Shown here piece after piece: positions 1 through 47,743 of a stretch of 64,000 nt of DNA. Location of the stretch: the NCBI GenBank assembly GCA_000091205.1, contig AP006499.2, one strand, 5' to 3'. This DNA is from Cyanidioschyzon merolae (lineage: Eukaryota). Every line of letters starts with the position of its first letter. The stretch's first letter is position 1. Made by a program: the position numbers and the translations under genes. Under the pieces are notes generated by a model, which had not been told where the DNA came from, did no database searches, and saw nothing but the letters and a program-made list of their open reading frames with translations.

Positions 1-1100
1 CAGCGCCGAGTGCCGCATCGACACCATCGCTGGGAACTCCGCGCAACTCGTTTGCAGCATTGCAGGACGAGCAGATGCCGCTCTCTCCGGAGCCAACCAG
101 TGGAACAGACGAGGTCGATTCAGAGCAGCCAGCTGCTGGAATTGCGGAGCGTTCTGAGCGGTCAAGCGCTCATCCTTCTGCGACGCAAGCCGATGAGATG
201 GAGAAGATACCCGAATGGGAACCCAACCGAGTCGAGCGGCGGGCCAAGACCATTTACGACGAATGGATGGCATTGCGCGACGTGAAAGAGGCGCGTCTTG
301 CGCTGGCTGAAGTGCCGCCTCGCTCGAGAGCAGCGCTCGTAGCGAACATCGTCCAGCGTTCGTTAGATCTCTCTGGCGAACAACGCGAGCACCTGCTACG
401 GCTCTTCACCGAGACGGTGCATGCGCGACTCGTTCCCCTGGATGACATCGCCACAGCGGAACCTGTCGCGAATGACACTCGAAGCGGTGCCGATGCATCC
501 GCACGAGTAGCACCAGATCAGCAGACGCCTCTACCCGGAGAGCATTCCAACTCGTCACTGGTGCGACCACTGGAACCCATGCACCTTCGGAGGGCGACGA
601 CGCTGATCTTGGCAGATCTAGAGGATTTGGTCATTGATCACCCGCGAGCGCTCTCGTTTTTGGCACACTGGCTTGCCCACTGTCTCGTGCAGACAACGGT
701 TGCTGCCGATACTCAAGAGCAGCGTGCCCAGCCGCAGGGCGCGGGCGTGAGTCTCTGGGGCCGCCCCGTCACCGCCCGTGATGCCGCTGCAGCGCTACGC
801 GAGCTTCTGCTTCCAGTTGTTGACTCGTGGCTGGCAAACGGCTCCGACTTGGCGTTACCGCTGGTTGCACACACTGCCGATGCCCTGCGGACACGCTCAC
901 CACTCTTCACCGACGACCAGCTCGCGGCGTTTTTGAGGGCGCTTGCGCTCCCCTGGGCCGCATGGGCTACTGCTGCTACTGGTGCTTCTGGTGCATCAGC
1001 GACCGATCAGGATGTATCTCGCCATATTCGCGCGGAGTTTGCTCGCGTCGGACTCGAAACCGTATGGTCCAATGTCGCCTCTGCTGCTGCTGCGGACTGA
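1..1100 (+). CDS. C-terminal fragment of a MIF4G/MA3-domain protein (eIF4G/PDCD4-like); the 5' end lies outside the window
   Basis: The reading frame is open from the window edge, and the listed ORF at 60 starts on TTG. The segment RRAKTIYDEWMALRDVKEARLALAEVPPRSRAALVANIVQRSLDLSGEQREHLLRLFTE fits the MA3 helical-repeat pattern, and an Ala-rich tail follows. The domain assignment is from memory of the family consensus. Confidence 0.4.
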   Translation, partial: APSAASTPSLGTPRNSFAALQDEQMPLSPEPTSGTDEVDSEQPAAGIAERSERSSAHPSATQADEMEKIPEWEPNRVERRAKTIYDEWMALRDVKEARLALAEVPPRSRAALVANIVQRSLDLSGEQREHLLRLFTETVHARLVPLDDIATAEPVANDTRSGADASARVAPDQQTPLPGEHSNSSLVRPLEPMHLRRATTLILADLEDLVIDHPRALSFLAHWLAHCLVQTTVAADTQEQRAQPQGAGVSLWGRPVTARDAAAALRELLLPVVDSWLANGSDLALPLVAHTADALRTRSPLFTDDQLAAFLRALALPWAAWATAATGASGASATDQDVSRHIRAEFARVGLETVWSNVASAAAAD

Positions 1101-1817
1101 GGAGCGCTGCGACCTGGGCCAGCACCGGACTCGGCGACAGCGGATGCGGCTGCTCGCCGCCATACCCTATCCTCTAGTTGTCGCATCAGAAAACGTATAA
1201 ACTGAAATTGGGAACTGGTTTCCGGACGCAGGCCTACCATGAGCACAAGCCGTGGCCGTGGAGGTGCCGCCCGAGCAACCAACTGCCGCACCAGGAGCGT
1301 GGCGGTAGCGTCCAGCCGGTTGCCCAGCAGGATGCGTACGGGATCGTCTGCCGCGTCCGTCTCATTCGCCACAAGAACGCTACTTATTCGCCCGGTCTGC
1401 GTGATGATAACCAGCCAAGCGTCGGTAAAACACTGCACGAAGAAAGTGGTTTCTGTCGTCTCCCACGCCGTTTTCCACGTCCAGTGCGGCAGATGCAACG
1501 AGTCGACGACTGGGACACGGCTTCCTGTCTGTCCAGGAGCTGTGTCTGGGTGGCAAGGCTCACCCTGAACCATCCTCGTGCGCAGTGCTGCTGTAGCGGC
1601 GTCTGCAGTCGAGTCAAAGCAGTGCACCGTGTTTCGGGGAAGAGGGCGGTGCACGCGCCCGCTCAGGAATGCGTAGATAGGTTGACGGGATATCTTTAAC
1701 AAGTGTGTATTGCTCGGGGACGCATACGACTCGAAAGCGCGTGTCGAACACAGACGCTTGATACCCTGGCTATCGTCTGTTCACCCAATTTTAACGCAAC
1801 CTCGATGTGATGTAGAG

Positions 1818-3245
1818 CGGGAGACCGAAATCACGACGCAATGTATGGAATAGATCGGAGACGAAATGCATGTAGGATATATTGATTCCTGCATAGTGCA
1901 AGGAGGACTGCTTCTCTGATTCAGGTCCGTCGTACCACAGTACTCAGACGGTTGAGAAGCACTGAAAGAAAGTAGATGCGCTCTGCTCCAAATACGGGTA
2001 TTCTCGATGAATGCTTGCGGTCAACGGAAGAAAACCGACGTGTTCATCATCTGACGGGAAGCAAAAGCGACGATCGTAGCCGCAACAGGCGTCAATGATT
2101 CAGAATAGCGTATTCATGGAATCCAGGATACACTGGCAGACAGTCGCAATAGAGTCCTAGGTCACGCACGGCCGTCTTCCACCGAAATCGCAACGATTAC
2201 AGCATTCCTGTAACGTCGCGATCGGTATGAGGCATAGGGAGGTCAGTTTGTTTTTCCCAGTCGTTGAGACTCGCTTTTGACGAAACGATCCGAATAGACA
2301 TGAGTGTTTGCGGATAAGGGAGCCCGTTGTATGGACGATCGAACTCGATCAGAACGATGATATCTTCGTCTGGTGCGGCTGCAGCGGATTCACTTGGCGA
2401 CCTCGGGTTCGCTCGCAGAGGAGACTCGTAGAACAGCACCAAGCACTTGGTCGGATCCTTGAAGATTTCGCCCTGACGTTTGACGACGTTCTTCTATTCG
2501 ACAACGTGACATTTCACCATTCCCGTTGCGTTCGGGCTCTTGTCGCATCTATGTGAGTAGATTTGCTCCCCATTCCTCCGTGCACTCCGCGGTTGAACCT
2601 CATAGAACGAATGTTTTCTATCGTGAAACGTATTGATCATTCCACTGGCTGATTCGCTGAAGCGTTCTGCACTCGGTGACATCGGGGCATGTGTCGCCTT
2701 TCTTCGAGATTTCCTTCTTCCCCTGACGATGTCCTTACCTAACGGCATATACAAGTGCGTCCGATTTGAAGACATGAAAACTCTAGTGGAAACGTATCGA
2801 CATGAAAGTCGGAGATCCTGGTGGGTCTGTATCGCCGGCTGTCGAAAAACAAAGAAAAAAAGCCCTCTTCTCACCAACCATTAAGAGGAGACGACCGAGT
2901 TACAAAGACGACGGACAAGAGGGGAGATCGACGACAAAAAAAAATTTTTTTCGGCCTACAGGACGATAACGAGAATCCAGTGCCACAGAGGACACGAGTT
3001 CGTTCGGGGAATCCTTGCACTGATGAGTTCCGCCAGCGTCAATTCTTGCATGGAGTTCGTGAATCGAGCCTTCAACGCTGCCATCCATATCAGACGATGT
3101 GCGGTGCTGAGGACGACCGCTGATGATATGAGGTGATCTACCTTTCTGGGGCAGCCTTTGATCCTAGAAATGCACAAAGAAATGCTAAAATCAATAGCAG
3201 GCTGCCGGGCAAAATAGGCTGGGAAGCGTCTGCGATTGGGTATTC
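1818..3245. mobile_element. Copy A of a ~1.4 kb repeated element carrying a degenerate TnpB/Fanzor-like (IS605/OMEGA-family nuclease) remnant; inverted relative to copy B at 46410-47743
   Basis: Positions 1818-2745 are the reverse complement of 46816-47743 at about 97% identity, with coordinates summing to 49561; this was checked through shared ORFs 2197..2442(-)/47119..47364(+) and 2494..2877(-)/46801..47067(+). From 2746 to about 3245 the similarity to copy B continues but is diverged and carries indels. GC is lower than in the flanking genes. Confidence 0.5.
2633..3123 (+). pseudogene. Frameshifted TnpB/Fanzor-like nuclease C-terminal fragment (copy A), with Asp replaced by Ala in the RuvC-III motif
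   Basis: Frame 2 from 2633 reads N-V-LIIPLADSLKRSALGDIGACVAFLRDF, which resembles the TnpB segment ...NVKGM..LAKSISDAGWGEF.. that follows RuvC-II. At 3062..3091 a different frame reads NRAFNAAIHI, matching the RuvC-III signature xRDxNAAxNI but with D replaced by A. No intact long ORF spans the element. Confidence 0.4.
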
Positions 3246-4349
3246 ATTTCACTCTCCAGGGACGTAGAGCTTTTTTGTTTTGCCGATCACGTGGGATCCC
3301 AACCAAGAACGTCCAATTAGACGAATGGATGCTTTACTGGGCATGCACCGCAAACGCTGCAGGTGCGAACTGTGCAGCGCTGGTCGAAAAACAGCGTCGC
3401 ACAGCGTAGCAGGGCGGACTCATACAGGTCAACGGTTTTCGTGCATCATCAGCGGTCGACGGAAACTCGGGAAACACACACGCGAATCGCGGTGGCACCG
3501 GTAGCAAAGCGCTATACCCGCAACGACAGGCACCTTGACCAGCAAACGATGCATAGGATGCAAAGCAATGCATTTCGAAGTGGGCAGTTGTCCGGACGTT
3601 CCCGTACCGCCTCGTTGAACGAAACCAAAAGCGCGGTGCCGGGTATCATCACGAAGCCGCAGCACACGTCCTGATTCGGTGTCTCAGAAAGCAGCGACGA
3701 TGCGCTTAAACCCTCGACTCAAAGCCTTTCACAAGGTTGCGGGTTGCAAGATCCATAGTGCCGTTTGCATGACTTCACCTCTGTTAAGAGCGTTGCATCC
3801 GGCGAGTTGCAACGAACGCCACCAGCGACACGGCACAGCAGACGCTCCGGAAGGGGTGACGCAGCGGCCAAGGTACACCGCTGGAACCATCAGATATTTT
3901 CATCACTGAGAACTATCGACGAATCGAAGCTCACGCCCGTGCATCCACGTCCTTGAAAACAATCTCAGTTCAAACGAAGCCGCCTGGAAAAAGCCGCACA
4001 GCTGACCTGGGCAGCTGCAGCACCGACACCAGCGCCCGCGTCCTCCCCTCGAAGCTATGTGTAGTGAACGTCGCTGCGGAAGCGCCAAAGAACCATAGTG
4101 TCCAGGGTATGCCGTTTCGCGAGCGCAACGAAGAACTGTTGAGAGCAAAAGTGCCTTGCCGCGTAGGCGCTCACTGCGCAGACCCGAAAAGCAGCAGTTT
4201 CAACTGAGTATCAGCGACAGCGTCTCGCCGCACCTCTTGGCTGTTTCTCGTGACGGCAAAGTCGGTTGCGTGGAGGGACTGCGTCAGAGAACGCGTCCGT
4301 CCTGCAGTTCAGCGCTTTCCTGACTTGAGGGCGGGGTTAAGGACCTGGA

Positions 4350-27180: not shown

Positions 27181-28193
27181 GATGCCTTGTTCGAGTGCGT
27201 CACGATTCATCTTGATTCCGGCAAGGTAAAAAGCCCTGCGGCAACTCGTCGATAAAACCAGCCCTAAAATACAACCGAGTATCCTGAAGCTGCGTATGTA
27301 CCCGTACGCTCATATTCCAGAACTTCAAAAGTCAAAGCCGTACATCCAAAGCAAGTTTGTCAAAGACGTGCAAGCAGGAACAAATTGAGCAGCTTAGTGT
27401 TCGATGAGCAGCTGACACGACTGCAGGCCCCGATTTCACGTGATCCGCTCCGTGAACTCCTGCGTTTCAGGGCGATTTTTTTTCATTGACAAAACGTTTA
27501 CTTAGGCCAGCGTTCTCCGATTATGCGCATTTTCCTTTTCTTACTTTTTTGTGTGTTTTTTTGCGCGGTGAGGTATCCATCAACCCCTACCTTCACGTTA
27601 CATTACCTATACTTCTTCTCGGATATTCTGGTCGTTTCATATGTCCTATCGTGTGTGCCTAGTGCCTGCCGAAAGCGACAGCAGTAGCGCCTATAGCGCC
27701 GGTGTGGTCGCTGCACGGAGACAGAACGACGTTGCCGTACCACACAGAGGGCGTCGGCTCGAGGGTTTCCGGGCGATGCTCTGATCGGCCGCGCACAATG
27801 GATGGACATGAAAATCCATTTTTGTATAGTCTCCACGAGTGCGCCGTTTGCGAGCGATGAACGCTCCGGGCTGCACTGCCGCCGCAGCGACACGGAGGCG
27901 CAGCGACCTGCAAGCGCCTACAGACGTCGAAACACATTCGTTGCAGACCGAGTAAGACCATGGACGAGATAAGCACATTGCCACCAAAACGAGTGTCGCT
28001 TCAAACTGTAAAAGATTCCATTGCGAAAGAGTGGACGACGAAGGAGCTGCGCACACAGAACCTCAAGTTCGTTCGGAACCTAGCTTTTTTCATTGGAGCG
28101 ATCTACGTTTTTCGCAAGTACGGCAAGTGGATGGAAATCTAGTCCAGCTCACCTACCGTGCTAAAACACACTTGTGCGAGTGTGTTCTATAAT

Positions 28194-41527: not shown

Positions 41528-42722
41528 TTGAAAGGACAGATCCTAGCTACAAAGACGCAAATAGGTATTGGCGCTAAACGAAGACCCAGAAGTTGCTTTC
41601 AACGCTGGGGCACTGACGAGAACAGGGTCCGCGCGTTCACCTGTCGTGAGAAAGAGGACACGCGTCCACCCAGAGCGCTGTCAAGCGCAGCGCACTCCTG
41701 AACGCTTAAAAGCCACTGCGCGCCCACGAGCCCGCTTTCCAAACTCTCAGCACGTTCCTCTGTGCGTAACAATGTTATTTACCAGAAAAAAACGCTTCGT
41801 CTGACTTGAGCAGCGCCTCGTCTCAAACCTTCCACTACAGAGTTTTTCCTACAAGTCGCATTTTAGCTATTTGTGACGCCCGCATCCCAAAGCGCGTTGC
41901 TTCCGTGCGCGCCCCGCACACGGATGCCGCCGCTGTTTAGCATGCGTGTCCGCGGCGTCGAATGCCGCCGCATGCCGAATGAACAGTCTACCAGCGATTG
42001 GGACATAATGGACACCGCCGCTCGAGTCGCCGCTGATCCACCAGCACCACGACATGGACCGGGGGCCTCCCTGGACTGCGCGATAGCAAGCGACATCCGG
42101 GAAGGCGCGCACCACTCTACGCCCCAGCTCCGAGTTCCATTGTTCATACTTCTCATCGGATATGCTGGTCATGTCGTGCGTTCTGTTGTGCCCTGAGTCT
42201 GCAGTGAGCGTTCACTAAAGCGCCCATAGCGACACTGCGAACGCTGCACGGAGACAAAGCGGCTTTGCCAAGCCACTGAGGGGAAGTTGGCTCGAGAAGC
42301 GGCTGCGCATCAAGCGTTACAGGAAAACTCCACTGGAGTTTCGGCAGTGCGAATACCAACATTCCTGGATCGACCAAGCCTCTGTTCACGAGGAGGCAGC
42401 ATCCTCGCATTAGAGCAACGTGGTCCTGGTTCTTGGGGAGCGGAGCTTGCTTCCCTGGGCATTCGTAGCGCTCAGGCATCGGGGAGCGTATCCGGTCAGG
42501 TGTGTTGTGATGTCAGCGCCATGGGGGCAGATGGCGTGCGCGCGCTCCCGCGTCGGCCGCAGCATAGCGTTGACAGCAGGAAACTGCGCGCTTCCATACA
42601 ACGAAGTCTGTACCTGGAAACACTGGTGTTTGTGTCTCGGCACCAGAGACTGAGTACGTGAAGCACTGAGGAATCTTGAATATATAGCAGTGATCCTTGA
42701 ACGAGTCCAAGGTGTAGTACAC

Positions 42723-46409: not shown

Positions 46410-46928
46410 TCAAGGGTAAATGTATCTACCCGCCCGCAGACGCTTACCAATCTTTTTCAACTGGCCGCCTGCTATCGACTTGCGCTTCTTTTTAGACGCT
46501 TCGAGGATCAGAGGTTGTCCCACAGAGTTAAATCGCGTCAGCTTCTCGGGTCTCGTGTTCAGCACCGCACATCGACTGATGTGGATGGCGGCGTTAAAGT
46601 CCCGGTTGATGAACTCCATGCTTTTGTCGCCTCTGCTTGATCTCATCAATAAAAGGATTCCTGGAACTAGGGCCTTCAGTTCGGGTTGCTGCTCTGTCAG
46701 CTTTCGGTGCTTTTCTATCGCCGACGCGCTCCGCGGCTTTTTCTCCATCTCGAGCTTCTGGAGTGCACGCCCCAGCTCATCCCTTGGATTGTTAAAATGA
46801 ATGCATTTCATTATGCCGTTAGGTAAGGACATCATCAGGGGAAGAAGGAAATCTCGAAGAAAGGCGACACATGCCCCGATGTCACCGAGTGCAGAACGCT
46901 TCAGCGAATCAGCCAGTGGAATGATCAA
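46410..46928 (-). pseudogene. TnpB/Fanzor-like nuclease C-terminal fragment (172 codons) with the RuvC-III motif NRDFNAAIHI; the N-terminal two-thirds are missing or disrupted
   Basis: The ORF reads MIIPLADSLKRSALGDIGACVAFLRDF...RSSRGDKSMEFINRDFNAAIHISRCAVL. The motif at 46578..46607 on the minus strand matches the TnpB/Cas12/Fanzor RuvC-III consensus (D/N)RDxNAAxNI. The upstream LAxSLxxSAxGDIG segment resembles the TnpB LAKSISDAGWGEF helix. No zinc-finger CxxC pairs are present, and upstream frames contain stops. Confidence 0.45.
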
Positions 46929-47743
46929 TACGTTTCACGATAGAAAGCATTCGTTCTATGAGGTTCAACCGCGGAGTGCACGGAGGAATGAGGGGCAAAT
47001 CTACTCACATAGATGCGACAAGAGCCCGAACGCAACGGGAATGGTGAAATGTCACGTTGTCGAATAGAAGAACGTCGTCAAACGTCAGGGCGAAATCTTC
47101 AAGGATCCGACCAAGTGGTTGGTGCTGTTCTACGAGTCTTCTCTACGAGCGAACCCGAGGCCGCCAAGTGAATCCGCTGCAGCCGCACCAGACGAAGATA
47201 TCATCGTTCTGATCGAGTTCGATCGTCCATACAACGGGCTCCCTTATCCGCAAACACTCATGTCTATTCGGATCGTTTCGTCAAAAGCGAGTCTCAACGA
47301 CTGGGAAAAACAAACTGACCTCCCTATGCCTCATACCGATCGCGACGTTACAGGAATGCTGTAATCGTTGCGATTTCGGTGGAAGACGGCCGTGCGTGAC
47401 CTAGGACTCTATTGCGACTGTTTGCCAGTGTATCCTGGATTCCATGAATACGCTATTCTGAATCATTGACGCCTGTTGCGGCTACGATCGTCGCTTTTGC
47501 TTCCCGTCAGGTGATGAACACGTCGGTTTTCTTCCGTTGACCGCAAGCATTCATCGAGAATACCCCTATTTGGAGCAGAGCGCATCTACTTTCTTTCAGT
47601 GCTTCTCAACCGTCTGAGTACTGTGGTACGACGGACCTGAATCAGAGAAGCAGTCCTCCTTGCACTATGCAGGAATCAATATATCCTACATGCATTTCGT
47701 CTCCGATCTATTCCATACATTGCGTCGTGATTTCGGTCTCCTG
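46410..47743. mobile_element. Copy B of the ~1.4 kb repeated element with a TnpB/Fanzor-like remnant; inverted relative to copy A
   Basis: Positions 46816-47743 are the reverse complement of 1818-2745 at about 97% identity. From 46415 to 46815 it is diverged but homologous to 2746-3245 (for example ...gatagcaggcggccag... against ...aatagcaggctgccgg...). It sits 370 bp downstream of the ISWI stop codon. Confidence 0.5.

Follow-up and report, generated by a model that had tools for sequence, protein, structure and literature searches.

A probable dead chimeric transposon remnant, part transposase relic and part Fanzor1 fragment, upstream of CMQ349C in Cyanidioschyzon merolae

On chromosome 17 of Cyanidioschyzon merolae 10D, a repeat copy in the intergenic DNA upstream of CMQ349C (copy A, 1816-3242, plus strand) is very probably a dead, chimeric transposon remnant, a claim that we make jointly with the origin and gene-conversion model described below. 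Positions are those of the window, the whole 64,000-nucleotide stretch of DNA that was analysed, which contains exact matches to C. merolae 10D CMQ349C, FGAM synthase and mannose-6-P isomerase. Read 5' to 3', copy A consists of a transposase relic, the 5' UTR and first few dozen codons of a Fanzor1 gene (2753 to ~2900), a deletion scar, and the last ~95 codons of the Fanzor1 gene. A second copy on the opposite strand (copy B, 47745-46427, minus strand) would derive from the same chimeric ancestor through a different internal deletion, one that joined positions ~897 and ~2737 of the CMe-1A consensus.

The 5' module of copy A (1816-2749, plus strand; blastn and MAFFT) is 934 bp long and 98.7% identical to that of copy B (47745-46812, minus strand; blastn, MAFFT and Pfam DDE_3). 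Judged from its sequence, the module is a decayed Tc1/IS630-type DDE transposase gene, placed in copy A at 1841-2745 (plus strand). The frame-corrected translation of the copy A relic matches Pfam DDE_3 (PF13358) at E 1.9e-9 and 38.0 bits, and that of copy B at 35.9 bits, against a cut-off of 28.6. The relic of copy A starts with a Met (MYGIDRRRNAC, 1841-1873). Its first catalytic site reads VVETRF (2260-2277), with Val for Asp as in copy B, its second Asp lies in LFDNVTF (2494-2514), and the third residue is the Glu of RLNLIE (2590-2607), 34 residues from the second Asp; LADSLKRSALGDIG (2645-2686) forms the C-terminal tail. Motifs of the DE-T, DN..H and NP(I/V)E types are thereby found in the order and with the D-to-E spacing of Tc1/IS630 DD34E transposases. 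Unlike these, the relic has Val for the first Asp, several stops and at least two frameshifts, and it shows neither a detectable HTH nor terminal repeats: Pfam returned no HTH or DDE match on its N-terminal part or on the relic of a third copy (L010, see below), and nothing convincing was found by way of terminal inverted repeats or TA duplications around A and B. The catalytic D, D, E/D triad is incomplete in A and B, and the third copy keeps VDETRF.

The 3' parts of both copies belong to a family that is itself already known. CMe-1A is represented by ~150 copies that are ~80% identical to a 3169-bp consensus encoding a 734-aa Fanzor1; no associated transposase was given for it, and its class was called unknown (Bao & Jurka 2013, Mob DNA 4:12, PMC3627910). 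A and B are two of its ~150 decaying copies in a model alga whose genome is fully sequenced, and their 3' parts are the last 95-120 codons of the 734-aa protein. They come from the same organism as the consensus, share 73-75% nucleotide identity with it (aa 610/632-728) and include the RuvC-III motif region, with the 5' UTR and start codon retained in copy A as well. They differ in being further from the consensus than the ~80% identity given for the family, in having lost ~80-85% of the ORF, and in carrying the Tc1/IS630-type relic in place of the TE-N2_CMe-like 5' 868 bp of the consensus. Indeed, consensus positions 1-868, including the 5' 635 bp shared with TE-N2_CMe, have no match inside A or B.

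The junction joins the relic end to AAGTGCGT..., and in copy A the stretch at 2753-2862 (plus strand) corresponds to consensus 869-972 (blastn, 70% over 110 nt, E 5e-8 to 5e-10). It comprises the CMe-1A 5' UTR, the start ATG at 2802 and the first Fanzor1 codons, which read MKVGDPGGSVSPA... where the consensus reads MEKEVEDPGGPVSPA...; segment 2787-2966 resembles CMe-1 aa 3-44 (phmmer, E 0.0056). Where the Fanzor ORF has lost its large internal part, a strongly decayed, unassigned spacer with an A9T7 run remains (2863-2947, plus strand). In permutation tests, 2880-3001 (most of the spacer plus the next 54 nt) gave no significant alignment to copy B (z = -1.8) or to consensus 2726-2850 (z = -0.1) and 986-1110 (z = 0.7), and as regards origin it looks like shuffled sequence. 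The C-terminal Fanzor1 fragment follows at 2948-3242 (plus strand), equivalent to CMe-1 aa ~632-726 and consensus nt ~2845-3086, with a coding piece of ~95 codons (2948-3232) and 44.8% identity to CMe-1 over 96 aa (tblastn, E 1.6e-17). At the nucleotide level, 3002-3109 corresponds to consensus 2850-2960, and consensus 3040-3084 is matched as well. Two stops, TGA (3134-3136) and TAG (3215-3217), lie in frame after the motif; in total, copy A has three in-frame stops and a ~590-codon deletion.

Copy B preserves a 174-codon stop-free frame (46413-46934, minus strand), which runs through the transposase tail, ~28 nt of CMe-1A 5' UTR (consensus 869-897) and 119 Fanzor codons (aa 610-728). Its segment 46780-46436 corresponds to consensus nt 2737-3084, and the 3' part as a whole matches the consensus at 73% over 351 nt (blastn) and E 1.5e-29 (tblastn). 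The ORF is adjoined by BAM82218 and BAM82219. Between the copies, 3002-3242 of A aligns with 46667-46427 of B at 71% over 241 bp (E 8e-29), so the two 3' regions are truly homologous, as the original prediction had presumed, and not similar through low complexity. In neither copy did tail alignment reveal a recognisable counterpart of the final ~80 nt of the consensus.

What first drew attention to copy A was a RuvC-III motif with Ala at the catalytic Asp, and translation reproduces it: NRAFNAAIHI at 3062-3091 (plus strand; AAT CGA GCC TTC AAC GCT GCC ATC CAT ATC), where GCC (3068-3070) stands in place of the consensus GAC (D672) through a single A-to-C transversion. Copy B reads NRDFNAAIHI (46607-46578, minus strand; AAC CGG GAC ...), with its Asp codon GAC at 46601-46599. 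The consensus motif of CMe-1 is NRDFNAAINI, and its last Asn has become His in both A (CAT) and B. Measured against RD-x-N-A-A-x-N-I, the motif of copy B keeps the Asp and has a His, and that of copy A, with Ala and His, is recognisable and not intact. In all six frames, the translated window contains exactly two matches to the pattern R[DA].N[AG][AS].[NH][IVM], versus 0.03 expected from 200 Markov simulations.

Among all 1560 ORF segments of the window, phmmer matched A and B to the CMe-1 consensus at E 3e-10 and 2.6e-33. A search with the CMe-1 family profile found 1251 representative proteins, 43 of which, ~600-740 aa long and with an invariant D/E/D, make up profile A4. This profile contains no window sequence, but the earlier profile used to recruit its members did include the ORF of copy B; profile A4 matches A at E 4.1e-7 and B at E 1.3e-11. 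It also matches the solved Fanzor1 structures of Parasitella parasitica (9cf0, E 3.6e-18), Spizellomyces punctatus (8gkh, 2.8e-10) and Guillardia theta (9cer, 2.5e-5), spanning RuvC-I, II and III. Given the phmmer matches to CMe-1 and the profile match to the solved structures, the motif is rightly read as a genuine RuvC-III of a TnpB-like (Fanzor1) protein. The Fanzor/TnpB link of the fragments depends on the published consensus and on this transitive profile. No significant TnpB/Fanzor domain came up when Pfam was run on the 3' ORFs of A and B, P0001, the P0002 N-terminus and the CMe-1 consensus; PF07282 is matched by nine of the 43 A4 members and weakly (E 0.15-0.5, last 11 positions) by full-length CMe-1. 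In the PDB, no Fanzor/TnpB match was found for the sequences of the B ORF, the CMe-1 consensus and the P0002 N-terminus or for the narrow profile A2, and only the broader A4 reached the Fanzor1 structures. On A and B, a C-terminal profile built from green-algal Fanzor1 proteins (Bao & Jurka supplement) reached only E ~1, and an AlphaFold2 model of P0006 (23-sequence alignment) was unusable at pLDDT 32.6.

The wider CMe-1 family resembles the solved Fanzor1 proteins and TnpB at RuvC-I (DPG), RuvC-II (DEFRT) and RuvC-III (NRD..A.N), and differs from them in a degenerate zinc finger, HH..C...C instead of two CxxC pairs. A and B differ far more, as they keep the RuvC-III end only and have no recognisable guide RNA or element right end. 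The region of the RuvC-I Asp (G-x-D-P-G; D431 in CMe-1) is absent from both. The RuvC-II Glu (VDEFRTS; E603) is absent in A, and in B homology begins at ~aa 610, just past that motif. Between RuvC-II and RuvC-III, where the C4 zinc finger/TNB would lie, neither copy has CxxC pairs, and an intact ORF of ~600-750 aa is present in neither. An Rfam scan of 1500-3700 returned nothing relevant (there is no guide-RNA model for CMe-1A), and a tRNA scan likewise. Because RuvC-I and RuvC-II are absent from both copies, neither could make a nuclease. For the same reason, and because the fragment is ~25% off consensus bases, the Asp-to-Ala change has no functional meaning and is one of many neutral substitutions. 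The Asp at D672 is kept in the CMe-1 consensus and in more than 100 metagenomic relatives. The original proposal that the Asp is ancestral stands for the family; the accompanying view of the 1.4-kb repeat as one gene does not.

Could the whole 1.4-kb repeat nevertheless be a single TnpB/Fanzor-like gene that in A was killed by the Asp-to-Ala change together with a frameshift within the RuvC-III region? In favour are the genuine motif with its Asp/Ala difference and the Fanzor1 origin of the 3' part. Against it, the 5' 934 bp match a DDE_3 transposase relic, and only aa ~3-44 and ~632-726 of 734 remain in A and 610-728 in B, which makes this improbable. The predicted break in frame was not borne out, as the LADSLKRSALGDIG segment (ORF start 2633) and the motif (3062) share a reading frame, both 2 mod 3. 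They are interrupted by an in-frame TAA (2882-2884, plus strand) that separates the transposase-tail ORF (2633-2881) from the motif-bearing frame segment, and LADSLKRS belongs to the tail of the decayed transposase relic, not to the Fanzor/RuvC protein. The real discontinuity in copy A is structural, between transposase relic and RuvC protein, and its Fanzor pieces (from ATG 2802 and at 2948-3232) lie in different frames because ~590 codons between them are missing. That both copies are pseudogenised, and differently so, was correctly foreseen. There is next to no chance that NR(D/A)FNAAIHI is instead a decayed third catalytic motif (SPDLNPIE-like) of a DDE transposase, for all the superficial D-x-N-x-x-I-H likeness to the DLNPIEH of Tc1/mariner and the DDE_3 relic upstream. 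We rejected this candidate as the transposase has its own third motif, RLNLIE, with DD34E spacing, and the motif region aligns to CMe-1 aa 610-728 and to the Fanzor1 profile.

A third copy (L010/L001) lies on another chromosome of a C. merolae-like strain, where it adjoins homologues of BAM80821/BAM80822; no synteny with the window was found. It starts within ~10-25 nt of the start of copy A, is colinear with copy B over 1089-1195 bp at 67% identity, shares the 5' end and deletion junction, and carries a complete CMe-1A 3' end. The ancestor of these chimeras was probably a transposase-plus-Fanzor1 element of the kind represented by PUl-1 of Pythium, from which internal deletions would have removed most of the Fanzor gene, leaving remnants to decay neutrally. 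For the tails, that of stop-ridden copy A among them, dN/dS is 0.4-0.56, and for the transposase tail it is 0.7-0.9. Since one metagenome scan for further relic-bearing loci returned only the known locus (L010 = L001), and no copy of the CMe-1 family with both the relic and a full-length Fanzor ORF was found, the full-length chimeric ancestor is one that we infer.

The Mariner-associated Fanzor1 elements PUl-1 and PUl-2 (Pythium ultimum) and PGv-1 (Bao & Jurka 2013) have, like the proposed ancestor, a ~930-bp DDE_3-type transposase gene directly upstream of Fanzor1 on the same strand, a short spacer lying in between. Pfam assigns the PUl-1 transposase to DDE_3 as well, and its pairwise similarity to the relic is weak (28% over 58 aa, E 1e-4); in a tblastn search of the window with this transposase, the relic was unmatched at E up to 10. 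These elements further differ in being intact and bounded by TA duplications and terminal inverted repeats of 24-33 bp, whereas both genes are dead in A and B and none of these termini were found, and in a D-to-E spacing of 43 versus 34 in the relic. The window also contains a second decayed transposase-then-Fanzor1 pair, nearly full-length, at 60202-57300 (minus strand).

The transposase relics of A and B are 98.7% identical and their tails 71%. The two copies are inverted repeats that lie 45 kb apart, and continuing ectopic gene conversion between them probably keeps the relics nearly identical. Another strain (L003, L011) has the 10D allele of locus A at locus B, and vice versa, at 2567, 2570, 2614 and 2727, if these two separate contigs of one metagenome sample are taken to come from a single strain; differences at 2750-2759 are locus-specific in every strain. 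The tract of high identity stops no more than 3 nt from where relic and CMe-1A meet (2749 vs 2753), a surprising coincidence for a conversion tract, and modules might have been swapped there instead. Chimeras with 5' modules in common are frequent among Fanzor elements (Bao & Jurka 2013, PMC3627910), which would suit either module swapping by recombination or the site-specific insertion of a young 934-bp non-autonomous element at ~868 of two old CMe-1A remnants. We nevertheless consider such a history, free of gene conversion, unlikely: L010 has the same junction yet a uniform ~67% identity across both modules, and relic alleles shared and swapped between A and B across strains are a signature of continuing exchange, not of a single insertion. 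Selection on a domesticated mini-protein, with A as its dead paralogue, is a still poorer prospect and very improbable. The short chimeric frame is open in B (174 codons), where it is found at the same locus in several natural strains, and in a paralogue (P0001, 213 aa) only 67% identical. Nevertheless, dN/dS in the tail (~0.5) is no lower than in stop-ridden A and is ~0.9 in the transposase-tail part, the ORF is unannotated in the NCBI 10D reference proteome, all catalytic residues but one are lost, and no Pfam domain was found.

Our preferred model, of a chimeric ancestor, internal deletion and continuing conversion, invites a wider reading that we hold only tentatively, at somewhat less than even chances. 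The chimeras may preserve the original vehicle of CMe-1A, a Tc1/IS630-type DD34E transposon with its transposase directly upstream of Fanzor1, of which the pair at 60202-57300 would be an independent example, and A and B may exchange sequence today and could flip the 44-kb segment in some strains. The Asp-to-Ala change itself is of little weight, as it lies in a fragment devoid of the other two catalytic motifs. For transposon biologists, two results are of modest value. The junction between relic and Fanzor1 5' UTR, fixed in three copies, suggests a plausible way to classify a family of hitherto unknown vehicle, and it extends the association of Mariner and Fanzor1 to a red alga. The swapping of alleles between A and B across natural strains illustrates cleanly, on a small scale, how dispersed repeats evolve in concert within a very compact genome.

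Translation of both copies bears out the RuvC-III motif as the original prediction read it, with Asp in copy B and Ala in copy A. Copy A has NRAFNAAIHI (3062-3091, plus strand; AAT CGA GCC TTC AAC GCT GCC ATC CAT ATC) and copy B NRDFNAAIHI (46607-46578, minus strand; AAC CGG GAC TTT AAC GCC GCC ATC CAC ATC), and across all six translated frames of the 64-kb window a loose form of this motif is found at exactly two places, versus 0.03 occurrences expected from Markov simulations of the window. The Asp codon is GAC in copy B and in the consensus of the C. merolae element CMe-1A, and GCC in copy A, a single transversion; the last Asn of the motif is His in both copies. The 3' regions are homologous, with 71% identity across 241 bp (A 3002-3242 and B 46667-46427; E 8e-29). 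A non-aligning stretch separates them from a 5' block of 934 bp with 98.7% identity and 12 differences (A 1816-2749 and B 47745-46812). The frameshift proposed for copy A is instead a stop codon: LADSLKRSALGDIG (2645-2686) shares one reading frame with the motif, parted from it by TAA at 2882-2884, with further stops past the motif at 3134-3136 and 3215-3217. The equivalent frame of copy B is open for 174 codons (46934-46413).

Three long ORFs of the window are exact C. merolae 10D proteins (CMQ349C, FGAM synthase and mannose-6-phosphate isomerase). The DNA upstream of CMQ349C contains copy A, and copy B is flanked by BAM82218 (SWI/SNF ATPase) and by BAM82219 (NnrU-domain protein). Of the two copies, only the ORF of copy B was queried, and it has no match among NCBI-sourced proteins. 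A combined query led to two metagenomic proteins, P0001 and P0002, and the N-terminal part of P0002 to over 135 relatives laid out like Fanzor1 (GADPGNTN, VDEFRTS, NRDFNAAINI).

CMe-1A is present in ~150 copies with ~80% identity to a 3169-bp consensus, encodes a 734-aa Fanzor1, lacks terminal inverted repeats, is of unknown class and shares its 5' 635 bp with TE-N2_CMe (Bao & Jurka 2013, PMC3627910). Its consensus DNA and protein were taken from the supplementary files of that paper; the Fanzor1 ORF occupies consensus positions 906-3110. By blastn, A 2753-2862 matches consensus 869-972 (5' UTR, ATG at window position 2802 and first codons), A 3002-3109 and again to 3234 matches 2850-2960 and 3040-3084, and B 46780-46436 matches 2737-3084. 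At the protein level, tblastn aligns A with consensus aa 632-726 (E 1.6e-17) and B with aa 612-726 (E 1.5e-29). When the consensus protein was compared by phmmer with the window's stop-to-stop segments, 1560 in total, the best match was B (E 2.6e-33, aa 610-728), followed by A (E 3e-10, aa 633-687); the N-terminal piece of A was also matched (aa 3-44, E 0.0056). Copies A and B are fragments of a Fanzor1 family already described for this genome, and the suggested TnpB/Fanzor origin of the RuvC-III remnant is real. The consensus has the catalytic residues D431, E603 and D672, the last encoded by GAC, in line with the ancestral Asp that the original prediction correctly proposed. Of these positions, only 672 lies in the fragments; with the remainder of the active site gone, the Asp-to-Ala change carries no functional weight. 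Judged from sequence, neither copy is a functional Fanzor.

Does the CMe-1 family, the proteins of CMe-1A elements, belong to Fanzor1? Single-sequence and narrow-profile searches of Pfam and PDB gave no significant match to Fanzor or TnpB, and an AlphaFold model (pLDDT 32.6) was unusable. Searching exhaustively with a profile of the family alignment retrieved 1251 representative proteins, many of them 600-740 aa long. In an alignment of 43 of these, the RuvC-I Asp and RuvC-II Glu are invariant and the RuvC-III Asp nearly so, and nine of the 43 match Pfam PF07282 (Cas12f1-like TNB). The 43-sequence profile matches the solved Fanzor1 proteins of Parasitella parasitica (9cf0, E 3.6e-18), Spizellomyces punctatus (8gkh, E 2.8e-10) and Guillardia theta (9cer, E 2.5e-5), in alignments that pass through DPGR, DEFRT and NRD. 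These structure matches, the PF07282 matches and the conserved catalytic residues place the family, by profile comparison, in Fanzor1. The same profile, which is free of window sequences although its members were recruited with one that included the copy B ORF, matches both copies (A, E 4.1e-7; B, E 1.3e-11). In the zinc finger region (P0004-P0023; consensus aa 601-672), the C. merolae CMe-1 family has two Cys and two His only, whereas other Fanzor1 have C4; RGLLWC in relatives, for instance, is RGLLAL in CMe-1.

The 5' 934 bp resembles Fanzor in no frame. Its frame-corrected plus-strand translation matches Pfam DDE_3 (PF13358) with E 1.9e-9 and 38 bits (curated cut-off 28.6 bits). In copy A this relic starts at 1841 (plus strand) with MYGIDRRRNAC and has VVETRF at the first catalytic site (2260-2277, plus strand), where Asp has become Val; the paralogue at metagenome locus L010, in contrast, retains VDETRF. 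The second-Asp motif LFDNVTF (2494-2514, plus strand) and the third motif RLNLIE (2590-2607, plus strand) place 34 residues between the second Asp and Glu, the DD34E spacing, and the plus-strand C-terminal tail includes LADSLKRSALGDIG, the segment named in the original prediction. The module matches in length the whole transposase gene (~308 aa) of PUl-1 from Pythium, likewise DDE_3. Pairwise comparison shows weak similarity to that transposase (28% over 58 aa, E 1e-4), a window-scale tblastn with it gave no match in the relic, and no terminal inverted repeats were found around the copies. The 5' 934 bp is a dead DDE transposase gene joined to a Fanzor1 fragment.

The chimera has a third copy, on a different chromosome, in a C. 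merolae-like strain (L001, the same locus as L010, which has more flank), beside homologues of BAM80821 and BAM80822. It is colinear with B over 1089-1195 bp (67% identity), starts within ~10-25 nt of the A/B start point and has the B-type junction (relic, then consensus 869 to ~897, then 2737 onward), reaching the very end of the consensus with 84% identity over 2737-3168. Copy A keeps consensus 897-972, missing from B, and B keeps 2737-2849, not detectable in A, so neither derives from the other. Both would descend from a longer ancestor, a transposase gene ahead of CMe-1A sequence running from position 869 to its end, an arrangement shared with the Mariner-Fanzor1 elements PUl-1 and PGv-1. 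A metagenome scan found no full-length copy of transposase plus CMe-1A, so this step is one that we infer. In a C. merolae-like strain, a further CMe-1A derivative with an internal deletion, L002 (3197-3635, minus strand), joins consensus 843-934 to 2903-3019 without a transposase relic; 'ends-only' CMe-1A derivatives therefore arise repeatedly.

Substitution patterns give no sign of selection maintaining the B ORF. Tail dN/dS, against the consensus or between copies, is 0.40-0.56, and the open frame of B has no lower values than A with its many stops; in the transposase tail dN/dS is 0.7-0.9.

Other natural strains are represented by L003 for locus A (99.1% identity to the window over 17.5 kb) and by L011, L012 and L016 for locus B; L003 and L011 are contigs from the same metagenome sample. 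Metagenome contigs often break inside the relic (2400-2749; 47161-46812). In its last 306 bp, A and B of 10D differ at four sites (2567, 2570, 2614 and 2727), all with the opposite assignment in the strain that L003 and L011 are taken to represent, and the L016 B locus has the A allele at four further A/B differences (2400, 2416, 2421 and 2443). Just past the relic boundary, at 2750-2759, differences are locus-specific in all strains compared. Because alleles are shared and swapped between paralogous loci across strains, the pattern bears the signature of continuing ectopic gene conversion of inverted repeats. That the 98.7% tract stops no more than 3 nt from the relic/CMe-1A junction is a slightly uncomfortable coincidence for gene conversion, and we keep module swapping by recombination between elements as a rival. 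Exchange between A and B, inverted repeats 45 kb apart, could also invert the intervening 44 kb.

Further Fanzor-related remnants occur in the window. A second, more complete transposase-then-Fanzor1 pair occupies 60202-57300 (minus strand). Its 270-aa ORF (60202-59393, minus strand) has a Tc1/mariner-like third motif, FPAYSLRLNPVESVF, and is the window's top match to a PUl-1/PUl-2 transposase HMM, but at E 0.095; a Pfam scan finds nothing in it. It ends exactly at the start of a decayed, nearly full-length Fanzor1 (59318-59004, minus strand, profile positions 25-101, E 5e-10; colinear pieces down to ~57300). A third Fanzor1 relic (21983-20910, minus strand), of a divergent family with 28% aa identity to CMe-1, is a C-terminal half (profile positions 316-580) with many stops, its best segment at E 2.2e-10. 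The first ~250 bp of CMe-1A, common to the non-autonomous TE-N2_CMe, recurs with 67-80% identity at 27586-27764 and 42098-42296 (plus strand) and at 48324-48193 and 55878-55672 (minus strand), one of the four fragments lying ~450 bp upstream of copy B. A possible further remnant (25917-25795 and 26025-25744, minus strand) has an RD..A.INIRRLL-like peptide (E 0.013, green-algal Fanzor1 C-terminal HMM) and 67% nucleotide similarity to the region upstream of the L002 Fanzor.

Only two points are mildly new: the evidence for concerted evolution of the relic pair, and the transposase-Fanzor1 junction, which may hint at the vehicle of a family of unknown class.
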